Assembly: GCA_963790305.1 (NCBI GenBank)
Contig: CAWBOC010000009.1
Coordinates: 384,001 to 448,000, forward strand
Direction of reading: 5' to 3'
DNA length: 64,000 nt
DNA from: an uncultured Gemmatimonadaceae bacterium
Lineage (GTDB): Bacteria > Gemmatimonadota > Gemmatimonadetes > Gemmatimonadales > Gemmatimonadaceae
Each line of letters starts with the position of its first letter. Within the stretch, counting starts at the first letter, position 1. A program made the translations under genes and the position numbers. Shown here piece after piece: positions 25,285 through 51,376 of the stretch. Under the pieces are notes generated by a model. The model made no database searches and was not told the origin of the DNA. It saw only the letters and a list, made by a program, of their open reading frames with translations.

Positions 25285-26478
<1,194 letters not shown>

Positions 26479-26559: not shown

Positions 26560-28656
<2,097 letters not shown>

Positions 28657-29015
28657 ATCTATCGAAATCTCGCCGTAGCGGCTGTAGTCGCGTCCAGAAA
28701 ATTCATCCAGCAAAAATGCGGGTGGACCGTGACGCCCCTTGAGACAGGAGCCGGTATCCATCCGCTGCCGCCGGGTGCACTCGCCACTGTCGCGCGAATG
28801 GGGACCCAAGGGCGCGCCGAGCAAATGCTCGGCGATCAATTGTCCTGCGTCGCTTTTCGGGAGCGTCAGCGTCCTATGCGCCTTCGCCGGTTCGTCGAGT
28901 TGACGACGCCCCGATCGTTCCGAGGCTCCCCCGCGCCGTTCGCGGGCCCATAATTGCCGGCTCGCAGTTAGCCAGGCTAGTCACGAGCACCGCGACTGCC
29001 GGTGCACCGTAGCCT
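28657..29015 (-). promoter_or_regulatory. Long structured 5' leader of fusA (candidate cis-regulatory RNA/attenuator)
   Basis: About 360 nt without a convincing ORF. Long stem at 28718-28765 followed by ATTTTT on the minus strand; hairpin at 28815-28834. Confidence 0.45.
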
Positions 29016-29019
29016 GTGA

Positions 29020-29047
29020 AATGTATTGAAGTTGCGAGCGGTGTCAA
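29020..29047 (-). promoter_or_regulatory. Sigma70-like promoter for fusA-tuf-S10
   Basis: TTGACA-16 nt-TACATT on the minus strand. Confidence 0.6.
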
Positions 29048-29074
29048 CGGGACGAGTCACCGTTGATTCAGCGC

Positions 29075-30238
29075 TCACACGCGCACGAATGCGCGTGCGA
29101 AGCCCACCGATTCCGCCAGCCGGCGAGCGGCTGAGCGCGGGGCTGTCAGTCCGTCAGTCAGCCAGATCGACATCTCGGGATTCTGCCAGGGCCGAGCGTT
29201 TCCGTGGCCACTCCAGCGGGGGCGGAGCGCGGCCGACCAGATGAGCTCGCCAAGCCTTACCGAGGGACACGCCCGCCCTTCAGCGATCTGCCATGTGAAA
29301 TAGCGCTCGAGGCGATCGAGCACGAAGCCCGGCGTCGGGGGCTCCATCGCCCGAAGCGCCGCCGCCGGGACGTCGACCCCGGCCAGGCGATGCGCGAGGC
29401 GGAGCGTCCAATAGACACACGTGGTCGCCCGGGCCGCTCGTGCCCGGCTCTCGCAGAGGGCCCAGTCCACTCCGCCTCGCTCCGTCAGCGCGGCGACGTC
29501 GCGCAACGCGCGCCACGCTCCGCCGTTCATCATGTGAGACCACACCCAGTGCCCGCACAGATACACGAGATGGTCTTCAACTGAAGGGATGAGGATCCCT
29601 CGTCGGGCCCCGCGCACCGCGGTGCCGCGACTGGCCACCGCCTCGGCGTCGAGCACAAACGGATGCCTCGCGGGAAACAGACCGGTGTGAAGCTCGAGCA
29701 GGGCCCGCGTGCCGCGGGCGTCCCGCAGCGGCGGCAGGTGGTGGTGGGTCGAGAAGAATGGCGCGTATCGCACGTCGTGCTTCCACACCCAGCCTGATGA
29801 CGCCGCCGCGACGCGTGCAGCGTCGGTCTCCGCAGCGGGCACGAGGACATCGAGATCCAGCATCGGCCGGTCGACGATGGATTCGTAAACACTCCGCGCG
29901 AGGGCCGCACCCTTGAGCAAGACCGTGCGAATACCGGCCGCCTCGAACGCGGCAATGGTCTCGTCGAGACGCTCGTCCATGCGCTGCAGCTCGAACTCCT
30001 CGACCATCGCCAGGCGTCCCATGTCGCCCGCTGCCGATGGCAGGCGTCCGCCTAACGCGTCACGGACGCGGCGCGCCACAACGGGAACGGCGCGCGCTGC
30101 GACAGCCATACGCGTCACAAGACCCCACCGGACTGCACCGACGGCAATCCGGGCTATCTCGGCGTCGTTGCTGCGCGGACCGGCGCAGAGAAACACCAGC
30201 CGTGCTTCAGCGCCGATCGACGGCTCACGCATCAGCAT
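29075..30238 (-). CDS. Nucleotidyltransferase-family protein (NTP_transf_5-like), lasso cluster tailoring enzyme
   Basis: LLKGAALA..RPMLDLDVLV (DxD), LELH; last gene of the lasso operon. Confidence 0.8.
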   Translation of the reverse strand: MLMREPSIGAEARLVFLCAGPRSNDAEIARIAVGAVRWGLVTRMAVAARAVPVVARRVRDALGGRLPSAAGDMGRLAMVEEFELQRMDERLDETIAAFEAAGIRTVLLKGAALARSVYESIVDRPMLDLDVLVPAAETDAARVAAASSGWVWKHDVRYAPFFSTHHHLPPLRDARGTRALLELHTGLFPARHPFVLDAEAVASRGTAVRGARRGILIPSVEDHLVYLCGHWVWSHMMNGGAWRALRDVAALTERGGVDWALCESRARAARATTCVYWTLRLAHRLAGVDVPAAALRAMEPPTPGFVLDRLERYFTWQIAEGRACPSVRLGELIWSAALRPRWSGHGNARPWQNPEMSIWLTDGLTAPRSAARRLAESVGFARAFVRV

Positions 30239-30239
30239 G

Positions 30240-31040
30240 TCAGTAGTGCGCCAGGGTCCCGGCACGCCGGGCGTATCGCATGCCAATCACGAATGCTCCC
30301 GTTCCAATGGCCAACAGCACGACGGCCATCGCCGCGAGGGTCAGCACGTCCGGAAGCACTTCGCGGAAGGCGACGCCATCGAGCCACACCCGCCGAAGAG
30401 CACGCAACCCATAAGTCAGAGGGATGACCCCGGATAGCGACTGAATCCACGAGGGGATGACCGAGGTCGGATAGTAGACGCCTCCGAGCAGACCGGAGAG
30501 AAGCAACACGGCCTGCGGCAAGGGTCCCGTCGTCCGAAACGCGAGCACCATCGCCGCCGCCATCAAGCCAATGGCGAAGTACGCCGCGGTGATCAGCGCC
30601 AGAATCAGGAGCGCGAAGCCGCTATGACCCGCGCTCAGCCGAACGCCAAGGATCACGGCCATCACAATGGTGAGCGCGCCCCGCACCGCCGTCCAAGTGA
30701 ACGCGTATCCAACGAGCCCGGCGATCAACAATGCGAGGCGCGCGCGCGTGGAGAGCATTGCCTCGAGCGTGCCGGTCGCGATTCCCGACGCGACTGCTCC
30801 GGATACGGCGTTCACCGCCGTCGAGAGAAACGAGAACGCCAGCACCCCCACGACGAGAAAGCCAAAGTAATGTCCGCCTTCGTTGCTGATCCGCTCGGCA
30901 ATCACTGGCTGAAGCGCACCGGCGACGAAGTACATCGGGAGGATCGTGACGATCAGGCCACCAATCGACATCAGCATGCCGAGACGATAGCTCGTCGCGG
31001 TAAGCCAGCTGGCGCGCATGAGCGCGAGGGCTTCACGCAT
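30240..31040 (-). CDS. ABC-2-type transporter permease
   Basis: About 6 TM segments, GTLEAML, GGVYYP..IPSW..IPLTYG. Confidence 0.88.
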   Translation of the reverse strand: MREALALMRASWLTATSYRLGMLMSIGGLIVTILPMYFVAGALQPVIAERISNEGGHYFGFLVVGVLAFSFLSTAVNAVSGAVASGIATGTLEAMLSTRARLALLIAGLVGYAFTWTAVRGALTIVMAVILGVRLSAGHSGFALLILALITAAYFAIGLMAAAMVLAFRTTGPLPQAVLLLSGLLGGVYYPTSVIPSWIQSLSGVIPLTYGLRALRRVWLDGVAFREVLPDVLTLAAMAVVLLAIGTGAFVIGMRYARRAGTLAHY

Positions 31041-32091
31041 CCGAACCCTCCTTGCGACGCGCGACGATGCGGTCGAGAAGCTCGGCCAGCGTGAGTGGCG
31101 CGCGCTCGAAGCGCGCGACCCGTACACCCGCGCACGTCAACAGATCGAGCACGCGTGCGGCATCATCGAGGCCGCCTGGAACGTCAACGTCAATGCGGGT
31201 CCATCCGTCTTCCTGCACGCCACCGCTGACGTGCGCGATCACGCCCCGCTCACCGAGGGCGTGCCAGGCGGGGTGCTGAGCGTCTCGCGTCCACGCCCGG
31301 TACCGGGCATCCCCGACTTCGCGCGCGAGCTGCTCAACCGGCCCGGTCGCGAGCAGGCGACCGCGGTCCAGCACCGCCACCCGATCGCAAAGGCCGAACG
31401 CCTCCTCCGCACTGTGCGTCGCGAGCAGAACCGTGCATCCCTGACGTCCGACGAGCTCGTCGCGCAGAAAGACGCGCAACGCACGCGCCGAAATCGGGTC
31501 GAGACTTCGCGTGGGCTCATCGAGCAGAAGAACGCGCGGGCGCGCGAGCAAGGCGCGCGCAATGAGCAGCCGCTGCTTCATCCCTGACGAAAACGTGCCC
31601 ACCAGCTGAGTCGTCGTGGCATCCAATCCCACCAGACCGAGGAGCTCGCGCACCCGGACTGCGACCTCGGCACGAGGAACGCCGTGCAGCGCGGAGAACA
31701 GCCGGAGGTTCTCCGTCGCGGTCAAGCGCCAGTGGAGCGACCGCTCGTCGGCGATGACCGGCGCCAGCACACGCCGCGTGGTGGCCGGGCTGCGCACGAC
31801 GTCATGTCCGAGGACAGTCGCTCGCCCGGTATCCGGCAGGATGAGCGTCGACAGCACCTTGAAGAGCGTGGTCTTCCCAGCGCCGTTCGGCCCGAGCAGC
31901 CCGACGAACTCTCCTTCGTTGACCTCGAGATCGACGTTCGCGAGGGCGAGCCGGGTTTCGCGCGTCAGCGGAGCGCGCATCGCGACGCTCAACGGGCGGC
32001 GAACCGCGAATCGCTTGCTCAACCCGACGATCGAGATCGCACTCGCCGTCCGCGTGGCGCAGAGAACCGTGGGCGCGGCCACCAGGGTCAT
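31033..32091 (-). CDS. ABC transporter ATP-binding protein (exporter)
   Basis: GPNGAGKT, FSSGMKQR, LLLDEP, ATH; ATGA overlap with the kinase. Confidence 0.92.
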   Translation of the reverse strand: MTLVAAPTVLCATRTASAISIVGLSKRFAVRRPLSVAMRAPLTRETRLALANVDLEVNEGEFVGLLGPNGAGKTTLFKVLSTLILPDTGRATVLGHDVVRSPATTRRVLAPVIADERSLHWRLTATENLRLFSALHGVPRAEVAVRVRELLGLVGLDATTTQLVGTFSSGMKQRLLIARALLARPRVLLLDEPTRSLDPISARALRVFLRDELVGRQGCTVLLATHSAEEAFGLCDRVAVLDRGRLLATGPVEQLAREVGDARYRAWTRDAQHPAWHALGERGVIAHVSGGVQEDGWTRIDVDVPGGLDDAARVLDLLTCAGVRVARFERAPLTLAELLDRIVARRKEGSDA

Positions 32092-33035
32092 ACCGAGCCC
32101 GCTCCTACGCCGTCGGCATGCCACGCGAGCACATCGGCGACGACCTCATCCAGTCGCGTGAAATCACGAGAGACCTCGAGCAGTCGCACCGGGACGCGCC
32201 GCGCCAGCGCGACGACTCGGTCGAGCAGCGCCACCGCTTCGCAACCGGTGAGAAGAGGTGCGATCTTCGCGTGGCGAACGAGCGAGAGCGCCGAGGGCAC
32301 CGGTGGCAAGGCGCTTACGCGAGCCGCTGCGCCGCCGGGAAGCGCGGTCACCGGTGACAGCAAGTACAGCGCGGCGATCGGCACCGCCTCAGCCTGGAGC
32401 CGGTCGATCTCGAGCGCGTCAACGACCATCCGGTCGCCCGACGGGCGCGCCTCACGAGGGGCGGGCGGCAGCCGCGTCGCCGCATCGGAGCGAAGCCGAA
32501 GCTCGTGGACGCCCGGGAATGCGAGAGGCCCGCCGTCGAGCTGAACGCGGAGCGTGTCGTCGGTGAGAAGTCGCGCGCCGGCTCGCACGAGGGCCCACGC
32601 GAGCGTGGATTTTCCGAAGCCCTTCGAGCCGAGAAACGCGATCGCCTCGCGTTCGATCGCGACGGCACTGGCGTGAAAGCAGACGTCGCCAGCAGCGTGC
32701 ATTGCCGTCGCGAGGACTCGGCCCATGATGTCGACGCGCGCGGCGTCTTCGGACACGGTCGCCGGGGCGCGCCAGATGATGGCGCCGCCCGAGGCATCGA
32801 TGTCGAAGCGCCCCGTGTCGTCATACATGAGATGCCAACCGCGACTCGATCGATAGAGACGCGCACTGGCGCTCGCGTCGACCTGGTCGCTGCCGAGCGC
32901 CTCGGCATCCCGGGGCATGGGCTCCGGTGCGTGGCGGTGCAGCGTCCAGGTGGGGCGTGCGGCCGTCAGCGCCCGCAGCGATGGACACTCGAGCGCGGTG
33001 CGGAGCACCCCTCCGAAAATCGCGTAGTCGGTCAC
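32088..33035 (-). CDS. HPr-kinase-like lasso peptide kinase (start uncertain, 33035-33080)
   Basis: FHASAV, GSKGFGKST Walker A, LLTDD; directly after the precursors. Confidence 0.8.
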   Translation of the reverse strand: MTDYAIFGGVLRTALECPSLRALTAARPTWTLHRHAPEPMPRDAEALGSDQVDASASARLYRSSRGWHLMYDDTGRFDIDASGGAIIWRAPATVSEDAARVDIMGRVLATAMHAAGDVCFHASAVAIEREAIAFLGSKGFGKSTLAWALVRAGARLLTDDTLRVQLDGGPLAFPGVHELRLRSDAATRLPPAPREARPSGDRMVVDALEIDRLQAEAVPIAALYLLSPVTALPGGAAARVSALPPVPSALSLVRHAKIAPLLTGCEAVALLDRVVALARRVPVRLLEVSRDFTRLDEVVADVLAWHADGVGAGSV

Positions 33036-33045
33036 TGCGGCTGGT

Positions 33046-33080
33046 GTGGCTGGGAGGTCGACCAGACCCTCCCGAGCCAC
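33046..33080 (-). other. Stem-loop immediately 3' of precursor A2
   Basis: gtggct-gggagg ... cctccc-g-agccac. Confidence 0.6.
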
Positions 33081-33087
33081 GGGAGCA

Positions 33088-33255
33088 TTACGAGCGTGAT
33101 CCGCAGGAACCACTGGAAGGGTACCAGTTGTTCCCATCGGACGTTACGCCGGTATCCGTGCTCGTGACGGTGAAGCCATCACAAGACCCGGTCACCCCGG
33201 CCTGGGTCAGCTCCCGGAACGTCCCGAAGCGCTGAACCTTGGGTTTCTCGTACAC
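33088..33255 (-). CDS. Lasso peptide precursor A2 (55 aa from GTG; alternative ATG at 33270)
   Basis: Leader YEKPKVQRFGTFRELTQ (YxxP, GxxxxxT, Thr at -2); core AGVTGSCD...CGSRS. Confidence 0.88.
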   Translation of the reverse strand: MYEKPKVQRFGTFRELTQAGVTGSCDGFTVTSTDTGVTSDGNNWYPSSGSCGSRS

Positions 33256-33327
33256 AGCATCTCCCTGCATAAAAGGTGAGCCTCCTTCCTACGGGAACGA
33301 CACACACACCTGCACGAGCCTAACGAA

Positions 33328-33360
33328 CTGAGACAGCGAGCCCTGTCCTCACTGTCCCAG
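33328..33360 (-). other. 13-bp stem-loop 3' of precursor A1
   Basis: Minus strand CTGGGACAGTGAG/CTCGCTGTCTCAG pairs fully only with two G-U wobbles. Confidence 0.65.
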
Positions 33361-33366
33361 GGACCA

Positions 33367-33543
33367 CTACGAACGCCCGCTGTTGATGTCACCATCCCAC
33401 GGGCATTCAGGGCGATTCGGCGCCCCACAGATGTTGTCGCCGCCAATTCCGAAGACGACGAGACCATCGTTGTCGCGGTCCCAGCCCGCCCGGGTGAGCT
33501 CGCGGAACGTACCGAAGCGTTCCACCCTGGGCTTTTCGTACAT
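33367..33543 (-). CDS. Lasso peptide precursor A1 (58 aa; hidden in the tail of a spurious 391-aa ORF)
   Basis: AAGGAGG SD; MYEKPRVERFGTFRELTR|AGWDRDNDG...SGRS; leader nearly identical to A2. Confidence 0.9.
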   Translation of the reverse strand: MYEKPRVERFGTFRELTRAGWDRDNDGLVVFGIGGDNICGAPNRPECPWDGDINSGRS

Positions 33544-33632
33544 GAGCCCTCCTTGATGCACGGTCGCCGGGTTCGCCCCCCGGCCGGGAGCGGGCCACAC
33601 CGGCCCGCGTGTCCGATCGTCGAAATCGACTG

Positions 33633-35586
33633 TCACGAAAGAGCACCGGCGAATGCCTGCGAGGCGCGCATCGGGCCGCCGTTCGGCGATCCCCGCGACG
33701 CGTCGTGCGCCCGCGTCCAGAACTCCGTCTGCAGCGTGAGAAAGAGCGTCACGCCAAGGTTGCCGTCGCCGCTCGCCTTCCACTCCTCCCAACCGCGACG
33801 CAGCGCCGCCGGGTCGATGATCCCAAGCTCCGCGAGCCGGCTGTCGCGCACCGCCCTGTCGACGAGACCGGCGCCCGCGTCGCGGAATGCCCGGCTGAAC
33901 AGCCGGCCGGTCGTTCCAGTCCGAGTGCGGCGGGGAGCGAGGACGTCGTCGGGTATGATGCCCCGCATCGCCGCTCGAAGGACCCGCTTCGTTTCCCGCT
34001 GTGACGCGCGCTCCTCCCGCGGACGCTCGGCCGCGAACGCGATCACGCGAGGATCCATCAGCGGTGATCGCACTTCGACCCCTTCCTCGCGCGCGAGGGC
34101 GCTCACGCACGCGTAGACGCGCGGGAAATACGGCGCGGTCATGTAATACCGGCTCTCGACGGCCGCGAAGCTCTCGCCCCGCCGCCGACGTGGCGTGGTC
34201 CGGGCACGCTCCGCAAAAGCATTCCGGCGCGCGAACTCGGGGTTGATCCAGGCGGGAACGTCGCGCTCGAGATATGCGCGGAGTGCGCGGCCGCGTCGAA
34301 GGGTCGCCGCCGCGTTGAGCGCGAACGCGGGCAGCAGCGGCTGAATCGCCCAGCGGAACAGTGTGCGCGCATCGCGAACACCACGCGCGCGGCATTCCTG
34401 TGCCGCCGCGAAGAGCCGACCGCTGCGCACCAGATCGGCGAGGTAGACCAGCGAGACCTGGAAGAGCTGATCGCCACCATTGCCATGCAGTGCGACGTGG
34501 GAATCCACGGCGCGACTTCCTCTGGCGAGAGCACGGTTCCAATGCTCGAACACATGGGCAAAGGGCTCATCCCGGCTGGCCGCGCCCTCGCAGAGTTGAT
34601 CGAGCAAGGAGATCTCTGCACTGTCGATCCAGTGCGGCGTCGCCCCCCAACGCCCCGCGACGGATGTGATGAGCTCATCTTCGCGCCCCGGATCACCCAC
34701 CGGGTACGTGATCGAGACTGCGCGAACCCGATCGACGTCGCCGCGCGTGGCCGACATGGCGGCGCCGAAGACCGCCGGTGAATCCCACCCGCCGCTGAGC
34801 CACACACTCGTTGCGCCGCGCGGCGTCGAGCCGTTCCTGAACGGCGCGCGCGAGGAGGTCGCGCAGCGCCACTGCGCCATCCTCGAGGGTCAGCCGGCGG
34901 CCGCTCTCGAACGTCGGCGCTTCCCAGTGCCGGGCCAGCACCGGGCGTGCGTCACCGATGCAGGAGAGCGTATGGGCGGCGGGAATTCGTTCGATCGATG
35001 CCAGGCAGGTGCTCGTCTCGTCGAGGGCGAGTCCCGCAGCCACTTCGCCAAGGTGAGGGAGATTGAGGGCAGGCTCCGCGCCAGCGGCGACGAGCCCGGA
35101 AACCCCCGAGGCCAACAACAGGCCATCGCGCGTCTCGGTGTAGAAAAGCGGCCGCGTGGCGCCGAGGTCGCGCGCCGCGACCATCCGCCGCGCAACGGAG
35201 TCCCAGATGATGAACGCGAAGTCGCCCTCGAGACGACGGCCGCACTGATCGCCCCACGCGCGATACGCCGCAAGAATCACGTGCGCGGTGGTCGGCCCCG
35301 ACGGACGCGCGTCCCTCTGTCGCAGCGCACGAAGGAGATCGGTTCGATAGTACAATGCGGCATCGGCGACGACGACGATCCCGGCTTCGCTCGCGATCGC
35401 CAGCGTGCTCTCACGGCCAGGCATCGCCTCCCACGTGTCGGATGCGATCGCAAGCGTGGCGTCGCCACACGACACGACCCGCGAGAGCTCGGCGCCGCGC
35501 CGCGCCATCGCGCTGAGTGCACGACTGGCGAGCTCCTCGCAATGCGTGCTGCGAGCGCGGGTGATGACGGCGACGATGGCGCTCAT
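33633..35586 (-). CDS. Lasso cyclase (asparagine synthetase-like C protein); frameshift near 34825
   Basis: N-part LEGDFAFIIWD..AARDLG.RPLFY; C-part WLSGGWDS, GNGGDQLF, VRSPLMD; ATGA coupling to B2. Confidence 0.87.
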
Positions 35587-36035
35587 CGAGCTCCCACGAG
35601 GCGCACGTCGGCGAGAGGCTCGAATGAGGCAACATGCTCTGAGGAATCGGCGAGCACCTCCGCCCCGAGCTCGACCCATGCGTGCGCCTCGAATCGACCG
35701 GTTCGCTCCCGCACACCAATGCGAACGTGCCACCCGGGCACCTGCGCGCGCTCCAGCATCCGCGACAGCGCCAGCGAGCGAACGAGACAGTTGGGACGAA
35801 ACACGCCGCGGCGCGAGACGAGCGACACGGCGTTGGCCAGTTTTCGCGCCGTCACGCGTGCGAGCTCGTCAGGCGCGGCCGATGCCTCACGCTCCCGTCG
35901 CACGAGGCGACCCTGGGGACGGGTCCACACCGCGAGCTGCGCTCGCAGCAAGGCGAGCTGCGCGCGCAGGAGCTCGCGGCGCTCGGCCTCGCTAAGCGAG
36001 ACGAGTTTCGACAGTCGCGACGCGAGGCGGCGCAT
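35583..36035 (-). CDS. Lasso leader peptidase B2 (transglutaminase-like)
   Basis: NCLVRSLAL and IGV..FEAHAWVE catalytic Cys/His motifs. Confidence 0.9.
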   Translation of the reverse strand: MRRLASRLSKLVSLSEAERRELLRAQLALLRAQLAVWTRPQGRLVRREREASAAPDELARVTARKLANAVSLVSRRGVFRPNCLVRSLALSRMLERAQVPGWHVRIGVRERTGRFEAHAWVELGAEVLADSSEHVASFEPLADVRLVGAR

Positions 36036-36315
36036 GCCGGGCGGGCTCCGGAGCGGGGACGAGCAGACCGAACGATTGCAGCGAGCTCAGCAGCTCGATG
36101 ACATCGGCGCGGAGATCAGCCGGCGAAACCTCGGGGTGCCGTGCCGCGAGCGCGGCGCAGAGCGAGTCGAATGACATGTGCGCGGGAGGCAACATCTCCC
36201 AGACTTCCGCCGCAACGGCGTTGAGGCCGAAATACACCTCGTCCGTGAGCGAGAAGAGGACGGCGCCTTCCGACAACGTCCGATAGATGACTGCCTGGTT
36301 CCGAGTGGGCAGCAT
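35992..36315 (-). CDS. Lasso B1 / PqqD-family RiPP recognition element
   Basis: GAVLF..YFGLNAVAAEVWEML..DVIELLSSLQSFGLL. Confidence 0.88.
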   Translation of the reverse strand: MLPTRNQAVIYRTLSEGAVLFSLTDEVYFGLNAVAAEVWEMLPPAHMSFDSLCAALAARHPEVSPADLRADVIELLSSLQSFGLLVPAPEPARHAPPRVATVETRLA

Positions 36316-36640
36316 GCAGCAGCTCTCGTCGACACGATTGCTCGTGCCGTGGCCATTGGGCTCGCAGACGCGAGACAGGGATCGCGTTACGACATGTCCC
36401 GGTTAGCATCCGGGGCTGCAAGCAATGGCAGAGGCGATGCCATCCTCAAGGGATGGTCCCGGGACGTGCCCTCGTGGGCAACGTATTACGCCACAACGGC
36501 TTCCGATCTGAGGGCTCGAATGTGGATAACGTTCGCCGTGCGCGCGTTCCGCATCGTTTGTTGCGGTACTGCGACAGGTGGGCCGTTCCGCAAATGCGAA
36601 ATGATTTTTGCACGTCACCCTCATTAGCGTGCCCTAACGA

Positions 36641-36671
36641 AATAAAACGGCGCCTCAGAGAGGCGCCGTTT
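36641..36671 (-). terminator. Rho-independent terminator after rpsG
   Basis: Minus strand AAACGGCGCCTC-TCT-GAGGCGCCGTTT followed by TATTT. Confidence 0.8.
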
Positions 36672-36694
36672 CATAACGATTCGCTCGAAAGGGC

Positions 36695-37161
36695 TTACCA
36701 GCGATAGTGCGCGAACGCCTTGTTCGCTTCCGCCATGCGGTGCGTGTCTTCCTTCTTCTTCACCGCGTTGCCTTCACCCTTCGACGCCGCGATGATCTCG
36801 GCCGCGAGCTTCTCCGGCATCGACTTCTCACCGCGATCGCGCGAGTACGAGATGAGCCAGCGCATGGCGAGCGCCGTACGCCGCTCGGGCCGCACTTCGA
36901 CCGGAACCTGGTAGGTCGCGCCACCAACACGGCGGCTCTTCACTTCCACGACCGGCTTGAGGTTGGTCAGAGCCTGCTTGAAGACGTTGACGCCCGGTTG
37001 CCCAGTGCGGGATTCCACGAGGTCCATCGCGCCGTAGAAGATGCGCTCGCCGGTGGACTTCTTCCCCTGGTACATCAGGACGTTGATGAACTTCGAGACC
37101 GTCTGGCTGTCATAGCGCGCGTCGGCAAGGACGGGGCGCTTGATGGACTTTTGTCGGCGGC

Positions 37162-37165
<4 letters not shown>
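36695..37165 (-). CDS. rpsG: 30S ribosomal protein S7
   Basis: [25 protein letters not shown]. Confidence 0.98.
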
Positions 37166-37548
<383 letters not shown>

Positions 37549-37576
37549 AACCTCAGGTAAGCAGCACAGAACAATA

Positions 37577-37606
37577 AAGTTAACGGCTCCGGTCGAGCGG
37601 TGTCAA
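37577..37606 (-). promoter_or_regulatory. Sigma70-like promoter of rpsL-rpsG
   Basis: TTGACA, then 17 nt to TTAACT or 18 nt to TAACTT. Confidence 0.55.
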
Positions 37607-37608
37607 TT

Positions 37609-37701
37609 GACGAGGATGGCGAAGTCGTCCAGGTCGTCGAGGTGATCGAGGCGACATCACCTCGAGCACCTCGACATCCTCGACAACCTCGATTACCTCG
37701 C
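37609..37701. repeat. 9-nt-period TCGAGG/CCTCGA tandem hairpin, copy 2
   Basis: gtcgtcgaggtgatcgagg ... cctcgagcacctcgacatcctcgacaacctcga. Confidence 0.7.
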
Positions 37702-37703
37702 TT

Positions 37704-40700
37704 CTATAGCTCCTCGTCGATCACGTGCGTCGCCGTTCCGAAGCCAGCGTCCGATAAACCAGGGACTGGAAGCGGGGCGAAGGGCTCCAGCGGTGCTGCC
37801 GGCACGAAGCCCTCCGGCGGCTCCGGCGCCTGGAGATCGATGTCGATCTCCGAATACCGATACTGACCGGTACCCGCCGGGATGAGGTGGCCGATGATGA
37901 TGTTCTCCTTGAGCCCAAGGAGATCGTCCTTGGCCCCGCGGATCGCCGCATCGGTGAGCACGCGAGTGGTCTCCTGGAACGACGCCGCCGAAATGAACGA
38001 CTGCGTCGTGAGGCTCGCCTTGGTGATACCCAGGAGCAACGGCTCCGAGGTGCCGGGCTTGAGCCCCTTCTTCTGGGCGCGGTCGTTGATCTCGCGGAAC
38101 GAGCCCTTGTCCACATGCTCGGCCTCGAGGAACTCCGTCTCCCCGGGATCCATGATGCGCACCTTCTGAAGCATCTGCCTGACGATCACGCCAATGTGCT
38201 TGTCGTTGATCTTCACGCCCTGCAGGCGATACACCTCCTGCACCTCGTTCAGCAGATACTCCTGCACCGCACGGGGTCCCTTGATCCGCAAAATGTCGTG
38301 CGGATTCACGGGTCCCTCCGACAGGCGGTCACCGGCGCGCACGCGATCGCCCTCGTGCACGCGAAGGTGCTTGCCTGCCGGAACCTCGTACAGCTGCGCT
38401 TCCTGCGACTCGTCCGCGACCTGATAGCCATCTGGGCCGTCACGCGTCGGCTGGACGAAGACCTCGCGCTTGCCACGCTTGATCTCCCCGAACCGCACCG
38501 TGCCGTCGACTTCCGAGATCGTCGCCGGATCCTTCGGCCGGCGCGCCTCGAACAGTTCTGCGACGCGCGGCAGACCACCGGTGATGTCACGCGTCTTGTA
38601 CGCCTCGCGGCCGATCTTGGCGAGAATGGTTCCCGCCCCGATCTTCTCACCATCGTCCACCGTCAGCTGCGCGCCGACCGGGATGACGAAGTCACGCAGA
38701 CGCTTCTCCTTTCCACCCTTCTCCTGCACGATCTCGATGTGAGGGTGCAGCCGCTTCTCGCGATCTTCGATGATCACCCGCTGCCGCAGGCCGGTGAGCT
38801 CGTCGAGCTCCTCGGTCACCGACTCATCCTCGACGATATCGACGAAGCGGACCGTGCCTTCGACGTCGGCGATGATGGGATTCGTGTACGGATCCCAGGT
38901 GAAGATCACCGTGTCCTTCTTCACGTCCTCGCCATCGGCGACCATCAGGAGTGCACCCAGCGGTACCGCGAAGCGCGACGCCACCGGCGCGTTCTTCTCC
39001 GCTGAGCCACGGATGATGATCTCACCCTCGTACGACGTCACGATCCGCTGCCCGTCGGAATTCTCGACGTGCACCAGCCGCTCCCCGTACTCGACGACCC
39101 CTGCCACCTTCGACTTGCGCGCCGTTTGCTCGGCGATACGCGCCGCCGTTCCACCGATGTGGAAGGTTCGGAGCGTGAGCTGCGTCCCTGGCTCGCCGAT
39201 CGACTGCGCGGCGAGAATACCGACCGCCTCGCCGAGATCCACCATGAACATCGTGGCCAGGTTTCGCCCGTAGCACATTCTGGCAGAGCCCGCGCTTGGC
39301 CTCGCAGGTGAGCACCGAGCGGATCTTCACCGTCTCGAGCCCCGAGTCCTCGATCGCGCGCGCCGTTTCCTCATCGATGAGCAGTCCCGCCTCCACGAGC
39401 AGCTTGGGGCGACCCGACTCATCGCGCTCATGCGGATCCTCGACATCCTCGGCCGCCACGTTGCCGACGATACGCTCGGCGAGCGGCTCGATGATGTCTT
39501 CGCCTTCCTTCAGCGCGCCGACCTCCAGTCCGAGGATCGTGCCGCAATCCTCTTCGGTGATCGTCACGTCCTGCGCGACGTCGACGAGACGACGCGTGAG
39601 GTAGCCGGCATCCGCGGTCTTGAGTGCGGTGTCGGCCAGACCCTTACGAGCGCCGTGCGTCGAGATGAAGTACTCGAGCACCGAGAGTCCTTCCCGGAAA
39701 TTCGACTTGATCGGGCTCTCGATGATCTCGCCAATGCCGCCGGTGAGCTTCTTCTGCGGCTTCGCCATGAGACCGCGCATACCCGCCAGCTGACGGATCT
39801 GATCGCGGCTGCCGCGCGAGCCGGAATCGAACATCATGAACACCGGGTTGAGCCCGCTCTTCGACTTCGACATCGCCTTCACCATGGCGTCGGCAATGTC
39901 GTTGTTCGCGTGCGTCCAGGTGTCGATCACCTTGTTGTAGCGCTCGCCGTTCGTGATGTTGCCCGTCTGATACGCGCGCTGGAAGCGCTCGACGCGCGCC
40001 TCCGCCTCCTCGAGCAGCGTCTCCTTCTCGCCGGGAATCTCGAGGTCTTCAACGCCGATGGAGACACCACCCATCGTCGCGTAGCGGAACCCGAACTCCT
40101 TGAGGCGATCGAGGAACGCGACCGTTCCCGAGAGCCCCGAGCGCCGATAGGCCTCGAACACGAGCTCCGAGAGTGCCTTTTTCTTCATCTCGCGGTTCTG
40201 GAACGGCATGACGTCGGGGATGATGCTGTTGAACAGCACGCGTCCCGCCGTCGTACGCTCCCACCGCGCGGGGCCACCCGGTTCACGAACCAGAAACTGG
40301 ACTGGCGTGTGATAGGTGAGCCGGCCCACCGCGAGTGCCGCCTCGATCTCCGCGAGCTCCGTGTAGCGTGGCGCATCGGTGACCTTCGTCGGATCGACCG
40401 GAGCGCGCGTGAGGAAGTAGCAGCCGAGGACAATGTCCTGGCTGGGCTCCGCCACCGGACGTCCATCCGACGGCTTGAGGATGTTGTTCGACGACAGCAT
40501 CAGCAGGCGCGACTCGAGCTGCGCCTCGAACGACAGCGGCACGTGCACCGCCATCTGGTCGCCGTCGAAGTCCGCGTTGAACGCCGCGCAGACGAGCGGG
40601 TGGATGCGGATGGCCTTCCCCTCGACGAGCACAGGCTCGAACGCCTGGATGCCTAACCGGTGCAGCGTCGGCGCGCGATTCAACAGAACGGGATGATCCT

Positions 40701-42027
40701 TGATGATCTCTTCGAGGATCTCGTACACCTCCGGGCTCTCGCGCTCGACGATCTTCTTCGCGCGCTTGACCGTTTCGGCGATCCCCTTCTCCACCAGCTT
40801 GTGGATGATGAACGGCTTGAACAGCTCGAGCGCCATCGCCTTCGGAAGTCCGCACTGGTGCAGGCGGAGCTCCGGGCCCACGACGATGACCGAACGTCCC
40901 GAGTAGTCCACGCGCTTGCCGAGCAGGTTCTGACGGAACCGGCCCTGCTTGCCCTTGAGCATGTCGCTGAGCGACTTGAGCGGCCGCTTGCCGCGACCGC
41001 GAATCGCCTTGGAGCGACGGCCGTTGTCGAACAGCGCGTCGACGGCCTCCTGCAGCATGCGCTTCTCGTTCCGGAGAATGACTTCCGGCGCGCGATGCAT
41101 GATCAGCTTCTGCAGTCGGTTGTTGCGGTTGATGACACGGCGGTACAGGTCGTTCAGGTCCGACGTCGCGAAGCGGCCGCCATCGAGCGGCACGAGCGGA
41201 CGCAGGTCGGGCGGAATCACTGGAATGACGTCCAGGATCATCCACTCCGGCTTGTTGCGCGTGTCGCCCGACTCACCCGAGTTGCGGAACGCGTCGACGA
41301 TCTTGAGCCGCTTGAGCATCTGCTTCTTCCGATGCTGCGACGTCTCCGTCTGCACGTCCTCGCGGAGCTGGTCGGAGACCTTGTCCACGTCGAGGCGGCG
41401 AAGCAGCTCGCGCACCGCCGGCGCTCCAATGTCCGCCTTGAAGGCGTCGTCGTTCGCCTCACGCGCCTTGGCGCGGAGGTCGAGGTACTCGTCCTCGTCG
41501 AGCAGCTGCAGCGGACGCACTTCCTGCTCGCCCGGCTCGATGACGACGTAGTTCGAGTAGTAGATGACCTTCTCGAGATCACGGAGGGTGAGATCGAGGA
41601 GGTTGCCCATCGGGCTGGGCAGGGTCTTGAAGAACCAGATGTGCGCCACGGGCACCGCGAGCTCGATGTGACCCATGCGCTCGCGACGCACCTTGGACAG
41701 CGTCACCTCGACACCGCAGCGGTCGCAAATCACCCCGCGGTAGCGGATGCGCTTGTACTTCCCGCAATGGCACTCCCAGTCCTTGACCGGACCGAAGATG
41801 CGCTCGCAGAAGAGGCCGTCCTTTTCGGGCTTGAACGAGCGGTAGTTGATGGTCTCGGGCTTGGTGACCTCGCCCCACGACCACCAGTTCCGCCCGCCGC
41901 CCATTTCGATCCGCTCACGCTCCTTGGGATCCTTGGGACCACGGATCTCCTCGGGCGACGCAATGCGAATCTGGATGAAATCGAAGTTCGAGCTGCGCGG
42001 CTCGCGCGCGCTACGGAAGTCAATCAT
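37704..42027 (-). CDS. rpoC: RNA polymerase beta' subunit; frameshift near 39280
   Basis: NADFDGD, zinc-binding motifs, [10 protein letters not shown]. The two ORFs join as [13 protein letters not shown] after removing one base. Confidence 0.97.

Positions 42028-50182: not shown

Positions 50183-51376
<1,194 letters not shown>

Follow-up and report, generated by a model that had tools for sequence, protein, structure and literature searches.

What is encoded by the genes that separate rpsG, for ribosomal protein S7, from fusA, for elongation factor G (EF-G), in an uncultured Gemmatimonadaceae bacterium, is the system functional, and why is it found there? The question is raised by nine co-oriented genes, packed tightly on the minus strand at positions 29075-36315 in the open reading frame (ORF) list of a 64,000-nucleotide stretch of DNA (GenBank assembly GCA_963790305.1, contig CAWBOC010000009.1, positions 384,001 to 448,000), the whole of which is referred to here as the window. 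A first-pass annotation, made from the letters alone, had read these genes as a lasso peptide cluster with a split B protein, a kinase, a nucleotidyltransferase and an ATP-binding cassette (ABC) transporter. Hidden Markov model searches with Pfam and NCBIfam models, from which the gene identities given here are taken, find support for all nine genes and for a cluster of this type. It is very probable that this is a genuine cluster for two lasso peptides, of the phosphorylated and glycosylated kind that is marked by a kinase and a nucleotidyltransferase, in a soil Gemmatimonadaceae, and that it is functional in nature. The placement of the cluster between rpsG and fusA is its least ordinary feature and went unmentioned in the annotation.

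The gene content is that of a lasso system. The leader peptidase B2 contains Cys83 (in NCLVRS) and His118 (in AHAWV). For the cyclase C, which is in two frames in this assembly, the N-terminal part lies in the frame of ORF 34693-35733, with its true start at 35586, and matches GATase_7 (3.6e-18), and the C-terminal part lies in the frame of ORF 33633-34880 and matches Asn_synthase (5.5e-31). Among NCBIfam models, the two halves match best those of lasso cyclases, NF033535 and NF033561. The intact C proteins of congeners (649 and 650 aa) score 219.6 and 203.5 bits against NF033535, versus 145.8 and 141.3 bits against asparagine synthase. ATGA start-stop overlaps are present at B2/C and at K/ATPase; B1 and B2 also overlap, and the overlap between the ATPase and permease genes is 8 nt. 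The kinase ORF is open over 32088-33137, with the GTG at 33035 as its likely start from homology to congeners, and K therefore does not overlap A2. An AAGGAGG Shine-Dalgarno sequence is present upstream of A1 and again upstream of A2. The transporter is made of two separate genes, for an ATPase and an ABC-2 permease, and is not a fused half-transporter (transmembrane plus ATPase) such as McjD.

Both precursors have the leader motif YxxPxVxxxGxxxxxT, with Thr at position -2, and predicted cores with Ala1 and Asp8. In A1, an 18-aa leader (MYEKPRVERFGTFRELTR) precedes a 40-aa core (AGWDRDND...SGRS) with Cys21 and Cys29; in A2, a 23-aa leader (MQGDAVYEKPKVQRFGTFRELTQ) precedes a 37-aa core (AGVTGSCD...GSRS) with Cys7 and Cys33. 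The calculated monoisotopic masses of the linear cores are 4200.877 Da for A1 and 3616.495 Da for A2. Comparisons with orthologues from four congeners (G002, G003, G004, and G007) show the leader motif, Thr-2, Ala1, and Asp8 in all four A1 sequences and in three of the four A2 sequences, and the RS end and two cysteines in all ten precursors when those of the window are included. Identity within this set is 84-98 % for A1 and 60-89 % for A2. The annotation recognised no known compound in the products, which agrees with the A1 homologues found: 13 protein clusters among 5.8 billion, all metagenomic and either unnamed or 'hypothetical'. Just after the A1 stop codon there is a 13-bp hairpin (33328-33360, minus strand), and the 102-nt spacer between A1 and A2 folds with a z of -2.99 (equalled by 1 of 200 shuffles); the hairpin may stabilise or attenuate the transcript. 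Neither the C-A1 nor the A2-K stretch has a fold that stands out from its shuffles (z of -0.28 and -1.38, respectively).

Features of the cluster and its flanks (window positions).
Feature	Position	Strand	Evidence or remarks
B1, PqqD-like recognition element	35992..36315	-	PF05402 PqqD 1.6e-13, 51.2 bits (cut-off 23.4)
B2, transglutaminase-like leader peptidase	35583..36035	-	NF033537 lasso_biosyn_B2 74.1 bits (cut-off 33); PF13471 3.8e-19
C, Asn-synthetase-like lasso cyclase	33633..35586	-	two frames, one extra base at ~34811-34820
A1 precursor, 58 aa	33367..33543	-	NF033521 lasso_leader_L3 28.3 bits (cut-off 19)
A2 precursor, 60 aa	33088..33270	-	NF033521 lasso_leader_L3 27.5 bits (cut-off 19)
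K, HprK-like peptide kinase	32088..33035	-	TIGR04352 3.1e-08 and PF07475 1.4e-04, both below cut-offs
ABC transporter ATPase, DrrA-like	31033..32091	-	PF00005 2.6e-30; TIGR01188 drrA 231.9 bits; ORF open to 32124
ABC-2 permease	30240..31040 (likely start)	-	PF01061 1.8e-17; ORF open to 31127
N, NTP_transf_5 nucleotidyltransferase-fold protein	29075..30238	-	PF14907 1.6e-35, 123.3 bits; ORF open to 30286
rpsG (ribosomal protein S7), upstream flank	36695..37165	-	95-98 % identical to congener rpsG adjoining the same cluster
Intrinsic-terminator-like hairpin	36636..36674	-	15-bp stem, 3-nt loop, U-run, directly after rpsG stop
TGGCAT-N6-TGCCA element, GG-N10-GC spacing	36426..36442	-	111-127 nt upstream of B1
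Right edge of cargo	29055	-	homology of G001 and G006 restarts exactly here
Sigma-70-like TTGACA-16-TACATT	29020..29055 region, upstream of fusA	-	scan match, 1 found against 0.8 expected
fusA (EF-G), downstream flank	26560..28656	-	95-98 % identical in congeners; main EF-G of the genome

The tailoring genes place the cluster beside a small number of known systems, which are compared here as far as the available text of the cited papers describes them. All 15 aligned kinases of the lineage have His120, Lys141, Asp158, and Asp159. These residues match the His-Lys-Asp-Asp motif reported as conserved and essential in lasso kinases, the target of which is the C-terminal Ser of the linear precursor (PMC9266682). 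Residues 127-131 of the N protein form an LDLDV (DxD) motif. In pseudomycoidin biosynthesis, a D134A/D136A mutant of the nucleotidyltransferase PsmN was inactive and no longer added +162 Da (hexose) units to the phosphorylated peptide (PMC6993621); N is likened to PsmN by description.

The pseudomycoidin cluster (psm) of Bacillus pseudomycoides DSM 12442 shares the split B1/B2, the cyclase, the HprK-like kinase, an uncharacterised N protein of nucleotidyltransferase fold, and an ABC transporter, as well as a core with Ala at its start, Ser at its end, and, as predicted here, a ring closed on an internal Asp (PMC6993621). It differs in having one precursor, the order C-A-K-B1-B2-N-D, and a single-gene transporter, psmD (PMC6993621), whereas here there are two precursors with two cysteines each, a two-gene ABC-2 transporter, and the order B1-B2-C-A-A-K-ABC-N, in another phylum. 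The mature unphosphorylated psm peptide has an m/z of 2618, compared with the 3.6-4.2 kDa of the linear cores in the window. The paeninodin cluster (pade) of Paenibacillus dendritiformis C454 shares the lasso leader with Thr-2 and a kinase with the His-Lys-Asp-Asp motif that targets the C-terminal Ser of the linear precursor (PMC9266682). However, it is described as being without an N gene (PMC6993621), and paeninodin as a class II lasso peptide without a disulfide (PMC9266682). In both paeninodin and pseudomycoidin, Ala1 is joined to an Asp to close the ring, and the C-terminal Ser is phosphorylated (PMC6993621). Outside the Firmicutes, the bsf cluster of Bradymonas sediminis FA350 has the same gene set of A, B1, B2, C, D, K, and N (PMC10368454), but its precursor has Ile at -2 and the kinase BsfK phosphorylates Ser3, whereas here there is Thr at -2 and an invariant C-terminal Ser. 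The first-pass annotation had associated clusters with a kinase and a nucleotidyltransferase with the Firmicutes; they are indeed known there, but are not confined to that phylum, given the bsf cluster of Bradymonas (PMC10368454) and the lasso kinase described in Sphingobium (PMC9266682). The enzymology of the window cluster is of the known paeninodin, pseudomycoidin, and bsf kind. What varies is that the two cores are very long and carry cysteines, that the ABC-2 transporter is encoded by two genes, and that such clusters reside in a split str operon across the family.

By comparison with these systems, a pathway can be proposed. A1 and A2 would be translated from their strong ribosome-binding sites, and B1 would bind the YxxPxVxxxGxxxxxT leader. 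The HprK-like kinase would then phosphorylate the invariant C-terminal Ser on the linear precursor, before B2 cuts after Thr(-2)-Xaa(-1) and the ATP-dependent C links the freed Ala1 amine to the side chain of Asp8, forming an eight-residue ring around the tail. The NTP_transf_5 protein would be needed for a further group on the phosphate, which is a hexose in pseudomycoidin. One disulfide per peptide is possible, and the two-gene ABC-2 transporter may export the peptides, protect the producer, or both. To our knowledge, the two long lasso peptides with which the cores are best compared, pandonodin and achromonodin-1, have no kinase or N tailoring. Both come from Proteobacteria, achromonodin-1 from Achromobacter, and they have 33 and 30 residues, compared with the 40 and 37 predicted here. 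Tail-to-tail disulfides define class IV lasso peptides and ring-to-tail disulfides class III (PMC13352647). The predicted disulfide of A1, Cys21-Cys29 within the tail, would be class IV-like, as is the tail-to-tail disulfide of pandonodin (PMC13352647), and that of A2, Cys7-Cys33 from ring to tail, would be class III-like.

Several observations weigh against a functional, tailored lasso cluster. The kinase, B1, and C all score below curated NCBIfam cut-offs: 33 bits against 200 for TIGR04352 on K, 32.1 bits (1e-07) against 70 for the lasso_PqqD model NF033530 on B1, and 110.4 bits against 525 for NF033535 on the N-terminal half of C. The lasso_PqqD models are lineage-specific, and the cut-off of NF033535 is narrow and is not reached by any C scored, those of the congeners included. 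Two A2 orthologues are exceptions to the precursor pattern, in that the core of G003 starts with Val instead of Ala or Gly and the motif Tyr of the G004 leader is replaced by Cys. The predicted cores are also very long. The record sizes given in a 2026 review are 33 residues for pandonodin and 30 for achromonodin-1 (PMC13352647), therefore cores of 37-40 residues would be the largest; they would exceed all characterised lasso peptides named there, and further trimming or a failure of threading is possible. Since BsfK acts on Ser3, the phosphorylation site proposed here is uncertain. Finally, a frameshift in C is present in the deposited sequence, and a contig without it has a depth of just 3.33 of a total of 6.33 at that point, while another record spans the site free of gaps.

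The frameshift had been implied by the annotation, which referred to a repaired C, and the assembly does have a +1 frameshift within C. The two frames meet just upstream of LSGGWDS, which we take to be the PP-loop. With the site aligned to four congeners (G002, G003, G004, and G007), in all of which C is in a single frame, the window has one extra base in a GCGCGGCGC run, at about 34811-34820. A (TG)n run at 34800-34808 was considered as the site of the frameshift and rejected, because the congeners share the TGTGTG and the extra base is upstream of it. If the frameshift is real, this strain carries a decaying pseudogene cluster and makes no lasso peptide, although its congeners may make one. 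That reduced clusters without C, precursors, and kinase occupy the same site in genomes G016 and G032 means that decay of this kind does happen here. It is nonetheless an unlikely explanation of the window, where the remaining eight genes are open and have full-length model matches. A similar frameshift is present in the same window in the essential gene rpoC (39280-39290, minus strand; ORFs 37704-39278 and 39022-42027), which is open in three of three congeners; this points to indel errors in the assembly, and other split genes in the window are to be read accordingly. In addition, a 283-nt contig from a public soil run (X1) aligns to 34723-35005 with no mismatch and a single gap, where it omits one base at 34818. 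This contig, the sole public-run evidence used over the frameshift (the runs contained 5-24 % of sampled words), is suggestive only, because of its low depth. A second one-base gap, at 35162, is present in an X1 contig among partly fitting, loose-ended contigs. None of the public runs listed as matching the cluster was an RNA run. It is most likely that the break in C is an assembly indel and not a real lesion.

Relatives in which the cyclase is missing raise another possibility, that B2 releases a linear peptide, phosphorylated or otherwise decorated, for which C is dispensable, so that the product would be a ribosomally synthesised peptide other than a lasso peptide. Three kinds of cyclase-less set occur in the lineage. 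The reduced forms at the rpsG-fusA site in G016 (L030) and G032 (L031) consist of B1, B2, the ABC ATPase, the permease, and NTP_transf_5, with no cyclase, precursor, or kinase found there by tblastn. Contig C5 of the genome that the window comes from (G000; 448017-448337; L002 1073-2887) has a second B2, in a PqqD-B2-NTP_transf_5 trio within about 10 kb of which tblastn found no cyclase or kinase and a leader pattern search found no lasso-type precursor; the trio may be a cyclase-less relative of the lasso system. In genomes G001 (L017) and G006 (L022), which lack the str-operon cluster, there is another B2-K-N-ABC cluster (at ~1400-2000 of L010/L011), again with no cyclase found by tblastn. 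The precursor of this cluster combines a lasso-type leader, YEAPKLVVYG..DLTH, with a 28-residue core that is rich in Gly, Arg, and Ser and ends in RS; as this core is without any Asp or Glu, a macrolactam is impossible. In the window, however, the cyclase is present and is conserved at 55-83 % identity among congeners, and both cores have the canonical Ala1/Asp8 pair. It is therefore very unlikely that the products of the window cluster are linear.

Other str-embedded precursors depart from the canonical core. In other genera, both in clusters with the gene order of the window (type I; L049, L050, and L056) and in clusters with the rearranged order C-A-B1-N-B1-B2-K-ABC (type II; L053, L054, L058, and L062), the cores have 34-38 residues and no acidic residue at positions 7-9 after Thr-Xaa; in some the first Asp is at 10-14, and some start with Gln. 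Either the cleavage site is different in these precursors or they would form a non-canonical ring.

The two-peptide lasso cluster belongs to a lineage that is widespread in the family. A kinase profile scan of one genome per species identified 25 loci; it used an alignment of six closer sequences, since the 15-sequence kinase alignment lacked a conserved stretch for searching. The close kinase loci are all from Gemmatimonadaceae, Gemmatimonadales, or Gemmatimonadota metagenome-assembled genomes, in keeping with the annotation's placing of the DNA in a probable Gemmatimonadota, and the distant ones are from Acidobacteriota, Rhodothermia, and unclassified genomes. Of 61 relatives, 39 have a B2 gene, and so do 104 of 151 genomes of the family. 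Lasso clusters have already been counted by genome mining in 29 marine Gemmatimonadota metagenome-assembled genomes (PMC11316326), and among the portions of the literature available to a search no characterised lasso compound from the phylum was found.

Between rpsG and fusA, the same cluster is present in five congeners (G002, G003, G004, G007, and G008). The site is empty in G006, in which 93 nt are followed by sequence where the homology to the window resumes, and in G001 it is filled by a different insert of 1.58 kb, with a reverse-oriented 361-aa ORF that has no Pfam family and a right junction as in G006. Upstream of the cluster in the window are rpoC to rpsL, and downstream is tuf. Two tuf-like genes, each a 397-aa ORF, were seen as weak EF-G-domain matches, at 50183-51376 and at 25285-26478, the latter being the one downstream of fusA. 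A second fusA was considered as a possible resistance copy and rejected: the single EF-G paralogue in the genome is 37 % identical, is on contig C10, and is unlinked to the cluster. In the sister family f3, G044, G046, and G050 carry a B2-C-K cluster away from the rpsG-fusA junction, on the rpsG strand and 31-37 kb downstream of that gene.

For the family, the positions of B2, rpsG, and fusA were cross-matched by hand in one sample of 151 genomes. In 33 genomes B2 follows rpsG on the same strand at a distance of no more than 10 kb; in five further genomes, where rpsG was found on a different contig or not at all, B2 is no more than 7 kb upstream of fusA, making a total of 38 out of 151 genomes, in 21 out of 77 genera, with B2 at the junction. 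In 83 genomes, rpsG and fusA share both contig and strand, and the interval between them is below 1.3 kb in 24 of these and 1.3-3 kb in six; it is 3 kb or more without B2 in 27, and contains B2 in 26, where it is 4.3-22.8 kb. Six of the B2 gaps are of 4.3-4.8 kb, and the two of these that were examined (G016 and G032) are the reduced form. Four unpublished genomes (G015, G065, G066, and G164) contribute to the denominators only and none is lasso-positive; G065 and G066 are also in the class below 1.3 kb. The cargo of 11 gaps without B2 includes catabolic, exopolysaccharide, PEP-CTERM, Ser/Thr kinase, BTAD regulator, beta-lactamase-family, and OmpA genes. Given this diverse non-lasso cargo, the junction is a general variable island of the Gemmatimonadaceae, of which the lasso lineage is the commonest recognised occupant. 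In the kinase tree, the junction-embedded kinases are all in one 26-row clade (Shimodaira-Hasegawa-like approximate likelihood ratio test support 99), which also includes seven rows whose context is different or not known; outside it are the kinases from the second, cyclase-less clusters of G001 and G006. A single ancient capture, after which the cluster was rearranged, lost, and in some cases relocated, would fit this pattern without being proved by it. A full-text literature search for lasso peptide, fusA, and rpsG returned no description of the arrangement among the matches listed, and the sole paper matching all three terms is a species description.

Such a distribution could also mean that the position is adaptive and tied to translation. 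Under this reading, the Gemmatimonadaceae would retain one tailored lasso lineage in the str operon through a functional tie to the translation and transcription machinery encoded there: the peptides could, for example, inhibit the ribosome, EF-G, or RNA polymerase, with co-evolved resistant targets in the producer, or be growth-linked signals, or their expression could be coupled to that of the str operon. The recurrence of B2 at the junction across 21 genera, co-oriented with the operon in all cases examined, and the single clade of junction-embedded kinases favour such a tie, and a lasso peptide that targets the ribosome, lariocidin, is described in the available text of PMC11451635. A tie to translation is nonetheless improbable, both as an explanation of the position and as the reason for its retention in the family. 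At least 27 of the 83 genomes with both flanks on one contig have non-lasso cargo at the same junction, and the diversity of this cargo argues against a functional link. For rpsL, identity is 100 % both in congeners that carry the cluster (G004 and G008) and in those that lack it (G001 and G006).

The sequences bordering the genes also bear on this, since a conserved terminator after rpsG, an upstream element belonging to the cluster, and a fusA upstream region that is conserved with or without the cluster all argue against the translation tie. The consensus promoter and terminator scan listed no terminator between rpsG and B1, but alignment and folding revealed one: all five congener spacers keep the hairpin after rpsG, G003 with a compensatory change, and the fold of the hairpin has a z of -5.59, with none of 200 shuffles folding as well. 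Judged from the letters alone, most other genera also have GC-rich hairpin-like sequences after rpsG. The TGGCAT-N6-TGCCA element is invariant in five of five congeners. It occurs once in the 64 kb of the window, against an expectation of 0.15, and at least once in 13 of 100 shuffles. Of 12 spacers scanned from other genera, one (G032) has the element; as it is absent from the other 11, it is at most a genus feature. It could be a sigma-54 -24/-12 promoter, a reading for which the consensus is presumed and rpoN is present in the genome, or, equally, a palindromic operator. The TTGACA-16-TACATT match ahead of fusA is by itself not significant; however, the 400 nt upstream of fusA in which it lies are conserved at full and empty sites. 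Together, the rpsG terminator, the cluster's own upstream element, and the conserved region upstream of fusA suggest that the cluster is an insulated cargo and transcription unit with its own conserved upstream element, and is not simply co-transcribed with the ribosomal genes. Rfam families were sought over 28000-38000 of the window and none was found at E<=0.1.

The predicted products of this two-peptide cluster would exceed in size every characterised lasso peptide that the review names (PMC13352647), and would combine a C-terminal phosphate, possibly with a sugar, and a disulfide, a combination not found described in those parts of the literature that were available. With two predicted topologies, ring-to-tail and tail-to-tail, served by one enzyme set, the cluster offers a test of the substrate tolerance of the cyclase. 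Were the improbable tie to translation true, these would be the largest lasso peptides known, of 37-42 residues, with a phospho-sugar cap and a disulfide, and the sister-genus cores without an acidic residue at positions 7-9 would imply ring chemistry outside the known 7-9-membered rule. For the family as a whole, the str operon is split at the rpsG-fusA junction, and this junction provides a simple handle for mining more clusters in uncultured Gemmatimonadaceae.

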